Source of the DNA: a virus | Lineage: Duplodnaviria; Heunggongvirae; Uroviricota; Caudoviricetes | Strand: one strand, 5' to 3' | DNA: 21,331 bases | Virus record (IMG/VR): IMGVR_UViG_2698536549_000028 | Span: 1 to 21,331 of that record | Position numbers: made by a program | Shown here: piece by piece, positions 15,001-18,000 of the stretch | How positions within the stretch are numbered: the first letter of the stretch is position 1 | Layout of the letters: every line of letters starts with the position of its first letter

Positions 15001-18000
15001 GTCTGCCGAAGATGGTTTACCATCACCGGAGCAAATACAACCCGTACAGGGCTTATGCATGGGACGGAGAGAAAAGCGTTTACGTCGGGTGCTATCCAAC
15101 TGTGGATGAGGCTGTCGCTGCGCAGGAGCGCTTCTACCAGAACGGCAGCACGAAACGCATTCAGAAAGTGCAGACAGCAATCAATGACGCAGAGAAGGAA
15201 ATGTTCATCAACAATCTCCGCGCCATCTGTCATAACTTCCGACGTATTAATGAAATCTGGCAGGCACAGTTAATGCCTGCTCTCGAAAAAATGGATTCGA
15301 AACTGGTTTACCGGTTGCATGACCGTTTCACCGACAGCATGTGCATTCTGCCGACCATAGAAGACCGCATCGGCAGATACATTCCACCAGCCTTATCCCG
15401 TTAACTCACTTCGGCCCCTGCTCAGTCAGGGGCTTTTTACAGGAATCGAAAGATATGTCATTTAAATACCGGGACAATCCACTTTATTACAGGGCTGCAA
15501 GGGAGGCTTTGCGACTTGAACAATCCGGCGAATATGACCGGGCAGCGAAGGTCTGGGCAAAAGCCAACCGCCAGTCACGTAACGAACTGAATCAGGACTG
15601 GAGCGAACGCCGGTCTGATTTTTGTCTGATGCAGAACATGCGCGAAAAGCGTAAGGCGGTCGAAGAATGATCGTTTACGTTGCCGGGCCGATGAGCGGTT
15701 ACGAGCAATTTAACCGCCCGGCTTTTCATTCCGCAGCAAAGAGGCTAACGGACAAGGGATATGTTGTGCTTAACCCCGCAACTTTACCCAATGGTTTGAC
15801 ACAGGCTCAGTATATGGACATCTGCCTCGCAATGCTTCGCTGTGCCGATACGATTTATATGCTCAAAGAGTGGGAGTACTCTGCCGGCGCACGTGCAGAA
15901 AACGCATTGGCAGAGAAACTGGAATTGAATGTGCTTTTTGAAGAGTGGGATTCAGATGGCCTATGAACGTGAAAACCTAATAGAGAAGCATCTCGTCGCC
16001 GAAGTGAAAAAGGCTGGCGGGGTCGCCTTTAAGTTCGTGTCACCCGGTCGCCGCTCGGTACCGGATCGCATTGTCCTGCTACCCGGCGGCCGTCTCGTTT
16101 TCGTTGAATGTAAATCTCCCGGCAAGCCACCACGGCCTGACCAGTTGCGCGAACATGAACGTCTGCGAAAGCTGGGCTTTACCGTGGTGGTGCTGGATAG
16201 CAAAAATCTGGAGGGAATATTGTGAGTAAACGTGATGACCCACAATTGCGGGTACGCATCCCGCAAGACTTGAAAGACACACTGGAAAAAATTTCCAGAG
16301 AAAACGACAGAACACTAACCGCCGAAATCACCCGGCGGTTACGTAAAAGTTTAGAGGATGAATCCACTATTCATTCTCAGGATTTAGCAACTTCTTAAGT
16401 TTTTCCATCACTTCAATAAGCTCGTATTTGTTTTCATAAACCCATTCGACCTGATACTCTCGATGGTACGTTGTCTTAAGTTTCTCGAGAAGATCCCTGA
16501 GTATGAGAATCTCATCAGCAGCTTCCTCAAACCCCCTAGATGTATGAAGTAATTTGTCCTGAAGAATAGTAGATTCCAACCGGCTAACGATCTCAGAGGT
16601 CAGTGTTCTCTTATTAGCCCGTGCTTTCTTCTCCAAAGCCTCTTTTAGCAATTCTGGTATGCGTACCCTCAACTGCGGGTCGTCTCTTTTGCTCATATAT
16701 GATCCCTTGAAAGTGTGAGAACAACATGCCTCACAAACATGTTGACTTCAAGCCTCATTGTGAGTACTAATAAAGTCCTCACAATGAGTACAAAACAAGG
16801 TTAACGCTATGGCTATTCAGATCACGCAGTTACATCAGGCAGATATTTTCGGGTATATCGCGGACATGCTGGAAACAGCAAGGCTTCTCAGTTCGCTGGA
16901 AAAAGGAGAGCAGTTAGCTTTTGAATTGATTTATTTTGCGCAGCAGGCTGCAAGGGAAGCTGCAAACAAGCCGTGGGATGAATAAATAAAACGCGCTGAT
17001 AGTTGCAGCTACCAGCGCATCTTTTATTGAATGGAGAATACTTCAATGTTCGAAACAACTTTAACACTAGCAGGCACTGGTAAGCAACCGATGATGAGCA
17101 GTCGCGAGATAGCAGAAGTGGTAAATAAAAACCATGCCGATGTTTGCCGTGATATTCGTGCAATGCTGGCAAAGCTTTACGGCGGTGATGAGCGCGATTA
17201 TATCCGTAAAGCCGATTTGCTTTACCTTACGAATCAGTGTGTTAATTGCCTGCAGTACAATACCGATAATCCAAACGCATGGGAGTACCAACTTGACTAT
17301 GAACACTCCGAATGCCTTGTAACAGGTTACGATGCCGTTCGTCGTATGGCGATGATTAAGCACTGGCAAAAACTGAAAAAAGAAGTCGAGCCCCCCCCAG
17401 TTAGCTATCACTCACCCCGCACCTGTAATTCAGGTGGATAGTAGAATTGTCCAGCTTGCTCGCGTCATCGCGGAGGCAACCGCATCAGCAACCATGAAAG
17501 CGATGTCGGAGGTGATTGCCCTTCCGACATATCAAGCAGAATCGGCCGCACCAGCGAATTTATCTCATGTTGAAGGTGAATATGTCCCCGTCAGCAAAGC
17601 AGCATGGAAAACAGGTTTATCTGATTCAACATGCCGGAAATTGATCGGCTTCGCCAGGATACCGGTACGTTCAGACACCGGTGTTCGGGGATTGCTCGTT
17701 AACCTTCCGGCGATCGAACAAGCAGCTCAAAAGCTGTTAAACGAATCGACACCGCCGAAAGGTAACCGCAAGCGCTGGACACATCCGCAGTTTGGCAACT
17801 TCACCTACTACACCGATCTAATCTGACATTATTGCGCGGGATTACCCCGCGCCCTACTGGCTAAAATACTATGGGACAAATTTTCACGCCTCGCCCCTAC
17901 CAAGATCTAATTATCAACCACGAAATAGGTATTTCCCGCTGCAACATCTGGGCAGGTATGGGAATGGGTAAAACCGTGGCAACGCTCACTGCGCTGGAAG

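Follow-up and report, generated by a model that had tools for sequence, protein, structure and literature searches.

What does the short open reading frame (ORF) at positions 15455-15670 of a Shiga toxin (Stx) prophage encode, and in which direction, if any, would its product move the adherence genes of the host? The ORF lies in a 21,331-nucleotide (nt) stretch of caudoviral DNA (IMG/VR record IMGVR_UViG_2698536549_000028, positions 1 to 21,331; hereafter the window), and the first-pass annotation had read its 71-amino-acid (aa) product as a PerC/Pch-type regulator that activates ler, the master regulator of the enterocyte effacement locus (LEE). Based on profile scores, signature residues and a predicted structure, we assign the product to the ANR (AraC Negative Regulator) family, of which it is a clear and already routinely annotated, uncharacterised member. 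The annotated coordinates were exact and the gene is real:

15455..15670, + strand: ANR-family small regulator gene (NF033650 72.7 bits, AlphaFold2 model, signature residues, dN/dS)
15441..15445, + strand: Shine-Dalgarno-like AGGAA, 9 nt 5' of the ATG of the ANR gene

The reading frame runs from an ATG at 15455 to a TGA at 15668-15670 (71 codons), and its product, MSFKYRDNPLYYRAAREALRLEQSGEYDRAAKVWAKANRQSRNELNQDWSERRSDFCLMQNMREKRKAVEE, is a basic protein of 8.69 kDa with an isoelectric point of 9.5. As an ORF of this size alone could be due to chance, we rely on its family match, its homologue clusters, its low ratio of non-synonymous to synonymous substitution rates (dN/dS) and its kept position to conclude that it is a real gene under purifying selection. 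The curated family model NF033650 matched the product with E=1.6e-20, and 104 homologue clusters with at least 66% identity to it were found across the Enterobacterales, in Escherichia, Klebsiella, Salmonella, Citrobacter, Cedecea, Edwardsiella, Sodalis and others, while an alignment of 39 homologues from many genera contained 19 invariant columns. Compared with E. coli alleles, dN/dS was 0.05-0.08 at a dS of ~0.5 (for example, 15 synonymous and 4-6 non-synonymous differences); this calculation excluded the allele at locus L015, which a 5-aa insertion puts out of register, and that of Yersinia phage YeP5, for which dS was saturated. The Shine-Dalgarno sequence is kept as AGGA(G/A/C) in the aligned related prophages, and the stop codon overlaps the start codon of the following DUF4406 gene in an ATGA at 15667-15670. 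A longer candidate, an ORF of 109 aa from a GTG at 15341, was rejected: it would cross the 3' end of the antA gene and a terminator-like hairpin, and all orthologues begin with MSFKY. A megablast search of the locus against the phage collection yielded no close DNA relative.

For the family assignment, we compared the scores of the window protein and of characterised regulators on two models, the NCBIfam model NF033650 ('ANR family transcriptional regulator'), with a curated cutoff of 32 bits, and the Pfam model PerC (PF06069), with a gathering score of 22.6 bits:

Window protein: ANR model 72.7 bits; Pfam PerC 19.1 bits
Aar (enteroaggregative E. coli, EAEC, 042 pAA): ANR model 65.7 bits; Pfam PerC no match
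Cnr (enterotoxigenic E. coli, ETEC, p948): ANR model 65.9 bits; Pfam PerC no match
Rnr: ANR model 57.3 bits; Pfam PerC no match
PerC (enteropathogenic E. coli, EPEC, pMAR2): ANR model 18.2 bits; Pfam PerC 143.1 bits

On the ANR model, the window protein thus outscores even Aar, the founder of the family. Its match covers profile positions 2-54 of 54, and a hidden Markov model (HMM) built from 102 distant ANRs, with the window clade left out, still gave 71.4 bits. RefSeq names the orthologues 'ANR family transcriptional regulator'. Beyond these scores, the published ANR signature consists of A10, E14, A22, W26, A29, W43 and R47 plus a conserved Cys (PMC4983702), and the window protein carries all seven residues and an aromatic-Cys pair, at A18, E22, A30, W34, A37, W49, R53 and F56-C57. 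Seven of these positions (A18, A30, A37, W49, R53, F56 and C57) are invariant in the 39 homologues, and E22 and W34 are conserved in at least 90%. Mutations at A14, E18, A26 and W45 abolish the activity of Aar (PMC4983702), and these four residues align to A18, E22, A30 and W49 of the window protein. In size, ANRs are smaller than 10 kDa and 39-80 aa long (PMC4038620, PMC10148876), with clade 2 at 8.5-9.05 kDa (PMC10148876); the window protein agrees with the former and falls inside the latter. When a profile was searched against 1.84 billion representatives, 154 clusters were found at E<=0.001, and the full ANR signature was present in 113 of the 137 listed matches of at most 120 residues.

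The predicted structure agrees with this assignment. The AlphaFold2 model (mean predicted local distance difference test score 88.1) consists of three helices, at residues 9-24, 27-40 and 44-70, as the definition of the ANR family demands. Structural comparison matched it best to ANR proteins of phages in the viral library and, in both libraries, to helical hairpins of the TPR/Sel1 type. No DNA-binding domain is recognisable in the window protein, and a sequence search of solved structures gave nothing significant (best E=0.24). Two side observations concern these helices. In some alleles of the gene (L015 3001-3231 and P0004), AKVWA, a pentapeptide of helix 2, is duplicated in tandem and in frame to give two or three copies, which makes the helix with the conserved Trp longer. 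In addition, a few long repeat proteins (P0146, P0166, P0178 and P0203), which have signal-peptide-like N-termini, match only the helix 1-2 hairpin of the ANR profile, four to six times each, with the hairpin motif A..LE..EKYEEA..VWEK. Either convergence towards a TPR-like hairpin or distant kinship may lie behind these matches.

How, then, did the product come to look like PerC? The resemblance is real, and we ascribe it to remote homology between the ANR family and the N-terminal domain of PerC. In BLASTP, the window protein is 26% identical to residues 6-58 of PerC over 53 aa, compared with 21% to Aar. An hhalign comparison of the ANR alignment with a PerC-family alignment gave a probability of 95.0% (E=3.5e-8, 52 columns), and the independent distant-ANR profile gave 95.9% (E=5e-9, 54 columns), with a reversed control at 0.9%. 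For this comparison, the PerC-family alignment comprised PerC, E. albertii PerC, a Pch fragment, Pollock gp83, SfII_42, AH07_46 and phi456 Orf51; these were gathered by tblastn against phages, a homologue search with PerC having yielded three near-identical proteins and no Pch. The two cores share the motif A..LE..G.Y.RAA..W...(W)..R..FC, and judged from these profile comparisons, a remote homology within one superfamily links ANRs with the ~55 N-terminal residues of PerC. On an ad hoc PerC HMM, the window clade scored 27.6 bits, Rnr 11.0 and Aar 1.5, which by these scores places the window clade closer to PerC than the rest of the ANR family; its YeP5 orthologue (66% identity) passes both models (ANR 79.2 bits, PerC 24.3 bits). 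Conversely, four PerC-family proteins of phages were scanned; each of them passes Pfam PerC, and on the ANR model they reach 15-23 bits (SfII_42 23.4). In the ANR papers searched by term, PerC went unmentioned as far as the matches shown extend, these being the word 'percentage' or an entry in a reference list.

Resemblance does not extend to membership. Against Pfam PerC, the window protein scored below the gathering threshold (19.1 bits, E=0.0016), and the match spans only profile positions 5-56 of 90: the window protein ends at residue 71, and the C-terminal part of PerC/Pch (35-50 residues, profile ~57-90) is missing from it. A precomputed PF06069 match was present in just one of the 104 close homologue clusters. 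Given this partial, sub-threshold match, the missing C-terminal part, the 72.7 bits on the ANR model and the RefSeq name, we do not count the protein as a PerC member. Of the label 'PerC/Pch-type regulator', what stands is that the protein is small, prophage-borne and genuinely similar to PerC (26% over 53 aa; 95-96% in hhalign); the profile search suggested as a check on it returned essentially no significant PerC-family hit.

The setting of the gene bears on what it might do. The window does belong to an Stx prophage, with Stx2b-like stxB and stxA genes and an integrase gene beside yfhL, and its features around the toxin genes and the ANR gene are:

1-264, - strand: stxB, Stx2b-like (B subunit identical to annotated Stx2b)
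277-1236, - strand: stxA, Stx2b-like (A subunit 315/320 versus annotated Stx2b)
1331-1404: tRNA, annotated as tRNA-Arg in orthologous prophages
12336..14399, + strand: DNA polymerase gene (RefSeq annotation of orthologous prophages), the kept upstream neighbour of the ANR gene
14508..15404, + strand: AntA/Ant antirepressor gene (Pfam AntA 90.9 bits, phrog_377), a variable cassette between the polymerase and ANR genes
15413..15438, + strand: intrinsic-terminator-like hairpin (8-bp GC-rich stem, 6-nt loop, T5; -15.6 kcal/mol)
15667..15966, + strand: DUF4406 (nucleoside 2-deoxyribosyltransferase-like) gene (Pfam DUF4406 116.7 bits, phrog_355)
15929..16225, + strand: VRR-NUC/PDDEXK nuclease gene (phrog_93 112.5 bits; Pfam VRR_NUC 20.1 bits, sub-threshold; synteny)

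After the tRNA gene follow a Q antiterminator, a VapE/DUF5906 primase-helicase, a pair of repressors, one Cro-like and one LexA-like, and then a long array of genes on the + strand, in the order DUF2800, DUF2815, BRO-N, DNA polymerase, Ant, the ANR ORF, DUF4406, VRR-NUC, Arc, Rha and SNF2, which terminates in the integrase gene beside yfhL. Within this array, the ANR gene occupies a fixed slot: DNA polymerase, a variable cassette, ANR, then DUF4406, DUF7446 or nothing, then the VRR-NUC/PDDEXK gene as the kept downstream neighbour across the phage lineage, and further on SNF2 and integrase. We found the same order in Stx2b prophages at yfhL, in an O121 strain, in a canine uropathogenic E. coli, in the STEC383 prophage adjoining a truncated tRNA-dihydrouridine synthase (dusA-like) gene, in Yersinia phage YeP5 (L010) and in Hamiltonella phage APSE-7 (L011). 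Since E. coli, Yersinia and Hamiltonella phages all keep this slot, we conclude that the ANR gene is part of the phage early/replication module; it is neither a toxin-attached moron nor specific to Stx phages. As a side observation, window positions 2626-19265 form a non-lambdoid module (VapE/DUF5906, DUF2800, DUF2815, family-A-type DNA polymerase, VRR-NUC and SNF2), syntenic with Yersinia phages YeP4-6 and with the toxin-carrying APSE phages of Hamiltonella, a symbiont of aphids.

As for expression, the only sigma-70-like promoter match in the scanned region 12000-17500 is TTGACT-18-GATACT at 14396-14425, and no promoter-like site was found in that region directly 5' of the ANR gene. The Ant cassette, absent in the related prophage locus L001 and present in L013 and L016, is closed by the hairpin at 15413-15438, 17 nt 5' of the ANR start. 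Aligned with the same three loci, the hairpin occurs only in prophages with the cassette; it was not listed by a simple terminator scan, its support being folding and conservation. The Ant ORF start at 14508 is probably wrong, M43 at 14634 being the likely start; the promoter-like site at 14396-14425 is followed by an Ant leader of ~200 nt, in which Rfam sRNA-Xcc1 (sRNA, small RNA) matches at 14510-14594 with 53.0 bits, equal to its gathering score of 53. On the downstream side, the ATGA overlap couples translation of the DUF4406 gene to that of the ANR gene.

Other candidate control elements occur in the window. Two convergent Arc-family (ribbon-helix-helix) genes, at 16222-16398 (+) and 16367-16696 (-), overlap by 32 bp at their 3' ends and encode the same first 14 residues, MSKRDDPQLRVRIP; they may be a control pair like P22 Arc/Mnt for the nearby Ant, Rha and BRO genes. 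At 10595-10780 (+), adjoining matches to Rfam isrK (54.4 bits) and C4 antisense RNA (76.1 bits) stand directly 5' of the BRO-N gene at 10795-11595, an arrangement that looks like the RNA-controlled antirepressor modules of the P1/P7 c4-ant or Gifsy isrK type. The isrK and C4 RNA pair is also annotated in APSE-7, there downstream of VRR-NUC.

For the proposed function, we drew on the characterised ANRs. Aar binds AggR and other AraC members and blocks their DNA binding (PMC4983702); it also binds H-NS and modulates silencing (PMC5570504). Rnr, the RegA-negative regulator of Citrobacter rodentium and EPEC, binds both H-NS and Ler and is a repressor of the entire LEE; when over-expressed, it lowers adherence and attaching-and-effacing lesion formation (PMC10148876). 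An aar mutant is complemented by ANRs of V. cholerae, Salmonella, ETEC and C. rodentium (PMC4038620, PMC4983702). By analogy with Aar, Cnr and Rnr, the window protein would act through protein-protein contact, not through DNA binding: it would sequester AraC/XylS-type activators, bind H-NS-family proteins (H-NS, StpA, Ler), or both, and would thereby shift host, and possibly phage, transcription. Given that the phage has no AraC partner of its own, the likeliest targets would be H-NS-family proteins or host AraC regulators. Its place in a same-strand array and the lack of a detected promoter of its own suggest that the most likely time for synthesis of the protein is after induction of the prophage and not during lysogeny. 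In a LEE-positive host, we would expect repression of ler and the LEE, as for Rnr, not PerC-like activation. More broadly, the conservation of ANR genes, Rnr included, in the early regions of several temperate-phage types points to a phage-centred role, for example interference with H-NS or host activators during induction. As an overall account, interference with host activators or H-NS-family proteins by an ANR-family protein from the early module of a non-lambdoid Stx2b phage seems to us the probable one, with considerable room for doubt.

Several points weigh against this account. No AraC/XylS domain was detected in the scanned neighbouring ORFs and none is annotated in the whole orthologous prophage, so the 'partner next door' layout of Aar and Cnr is missing here. 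The window gene thus lacks the cognate AraC/XylS activator that adjoins ANR genes, usually divergently; such a partner is typical of Aar and Cnr and not universal among ANRs, as the prophage-borne Rnr has none beside it. As the terminator of the Ant cassette lies just 5' of the gene, read-through would be needed for its expression in the window prophage, and expression there is uncertain. The STEC383 allele (L014 3001-3216) stops at codon 4, RefSeq having a shorter ORF that starts downstream, and the homologous ORF is pseudogenised in most APSE phages according to annotators' notes; the gene is therefore dispensable in some lineages. Purifying selection on it is strong in some lineages, whereas in others it has been lost or is decaying. 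For this ANR subclade, the proposed binding, expression and phenotype are predictions by analogy, and the kept place beside the replication genes could equally mean a phage-internal role.

That last possibility is the main rival: an accessory of the replication/recombination module, in which the three-helix protein would serve as an adaptor for a phage protein (DNA polymerase, VRR-NUC or SNF2) and regulate no host gene. The strictly kept place between DNA polymerase and VRR-NUC in E. coli, Yersinia and Hamiltonella phages, the translational coupling to the next gene, the lack of an AraC partner and a TPR-like fold, which is a general protein-binding scaffold, would all fit an adaptor. However, ANRs from very different contexts, prophage-borne Rnr included, can replace one another in aggR repression and bind regulators of the host (PMC4038620, PMC4983702), every residue required for this activity is kept in the window protein, and other ANR genes lie outside replicative contexts, for example on small plasmids and in Mu-like early regions; we consider the adaptor unlikely. 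A gene that is decaying or silent, without current function in the window prophage, would agree with the hairpin 17 nt upstream and the lack of a promoter of its own, with the APSE pseudogenes and the STEC383 stop codon, and with the failure to induce yfhL Stx2b prophages in one study (PMC12029490). Yet the intact reading frame, a dN/dS of 0.05-0.08 at a dS of ~0.5, the 19 invariant columns in 39 homologues and the conserved Shine-Dalgarno sequence and ATGA coupling make this scarcely credible.

We also weighed the activator proposed at first, by which the toxin phage would raise adherence gene expression by switching on ler at the LEE1 promoter. In its favour are the real remote homology to the N-terminal region of PerC (hhalign, BLASTP), the place of the window clade as the ANR subclade closest to PerC, with a YeP5 orthologue that just passes Pfam PerC, and weak matches to two PHROGs annotated 'transcriptional activator'. 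Nevertheless, the Pfam PerC match is partial and sub-threshold, the protein ends where the C-terminal part of PerC/Pch starts, and its score on the ANR model is almost four times that on PerC. Within the PerC family, moreover, LEE activation is confined to group 1 (PerC, PchA/B/C), with PchE working against adhesion (PMC7369912); Rnr, as the nearest characterised relative, is a LEE repressor (PMC10148876), and published hosts of yfhL Stx2b prophages show no stx2+eae combination (PMC10675304). We hold such an activator to be highly improbable. Activation of ler thus finds no backing: characterised ANRs are anti-activators, and since Rnr represses the LEE, any effect of the window protein on ler is more likely negative, and irrelevant in the reported eae-negative hosts. 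The value of the correction lies in the sign, as the PerC-like reading predicts the wrong one for adherence genes.

For the Stx phage itself, little changes: it carries a standard, annotated early-module ANR gene, and the Stx2b hosts described so far are without LEE. One paper judged Stx2b prophages of this kind 'potentially defective' for want of a regulatory region, and two such prophages at yfhL resisted induction (PMC12029490). Among the strains from which published yfhL Stx2b prophages come, no stx2+eae combination was seen (PMC10675304). We did find related prophages in O55:H7 and O121 backgrounds, through which an interaction between ANR and LEE is possible in principle. These serogroups are usually LEE-positive.

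A wider reading would place the ANR and PerC/Pch families in one superfamily with its ancestral home in the early region of temperate phages, where the three-helix domain would originally have served, while the phage develops, to bind nucleoid proteins of the H-NS family or activators of the host; Aar, Rnr, PerC and Pch would then be domesticated takeover factors of phage origin. The contexts behind it are polymerase-type modules (the window, YeP and APSE phages), Mu-like early regions (Rnr) and lambdoid replication regions (the SfII_42 fusion of a winged helix-turn-helix to PerC), together with the fact that the window clade scores on both family models; in this reading, the window clade would be a bridging form. 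We offer it tentatively, with more doubt than belief. If it were true, the Stx phage would carry a built-in brake on LEE or AraC-controlled adhesins, released on induction. Only the homology of the ANR and PerC cores and the phage early-gene habitat of Rnr and the window clade seem to us of interest for specialist follow-up. Apart from this reading, we observed that the PerC/ANR-like core is also the C-terminal domain of proteins of ~140-160 aa with a winged-helix-type N-terminal domain (L006 10-495, SfII_42; L008 82-516, AH07_46; P0222); in phage SfII, the SfII_42 gene lies between the replication O gene and dam. The DNA-binding fusion partner may be a clue to the targeting of the free PerC/ANR module.

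Among the known systems, the closest characterised relative of the window protein is Rnr, of ANR clade 2. The two are 37% identical over a 46-residue core, both pass NF033650, they are of the same size class, and both are encoded among prophage early genes (PMC4038620); their N- and C-terminal tails are unrelated. The location of the Rnr gene in a phage region was remarked upon originally (PMC4038620). In E. coli 08-00022 (L012 3001-3234), the order is MuA, MuB, ..., DUF3164, ANR, ..., gp16, and the C-terminus of the encoded protein, WRPRHECEEL, agrees with the published cloning primers. Rnr therefore sits in a Mu-like prophage beside a DUF3164 gene, whereas the window gene belongs to a polymerase-type replication module, and while Rnr has experimental support (H-NS and Ler binding, repression of LEE and RegA), the window protein is known by its sequence and predicted structure.

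With Aar and Cnr, of clade 1, the window protein has in common the ANR signature, the four residues essential in Aar, the three-helix prediction and small size, at an identity of only ~21%. Their genes are plasmid-borne, lie divergently beside those of their AraC partners (AggR and CfaD/Rns) and are activated by them, whereas the window gene has no AraC gene near it and stands inside a phage early gene array. PerC (EPEC pMAR2) and PchA-C (prophages of enterohaemorrhagic E. coli) resemble the window protein in being small, encoded on mobile elements and without a classical DNA-binding domain, and in both families the action is on loci that H-NS silences (PMC4764244, PMC5570504). The second conserved Trp of the window protein is absent from PerC itself. 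In action the two families differ: PerC and Pch activate LEE1 and associate with DNA (PMC4764244), whereas ANRs are negative in action and bind directly to H-NS, Ler and AraC proteins. For Pch, the association with DNA was reported at regions bound by H-NS, without any observed binding of Pch to H-NS or Ler (PMC4764244).

Finally, the nearest counterparts in place are the phage orthologues, at 66% identity in YeP5 and 44-56% in the APSE ORFs, which occupy the same slot right after the DNA polymerase gene. Among these unstudied genes (YeP4-6, APSE and the yfhL/dusA prophages), the neighbouring cassettes vary between Ant, DUF4406, DUF7446 and none. ANR-like ORFs were also found by tblastn near 5-7 kb in Haemophilus SuMu, Pseudomonas VW-6B, Aeromonas 4_4512 and Pasteurella AFS-2018a, as well as in Sodalis phiSG1 and many small plasmids.

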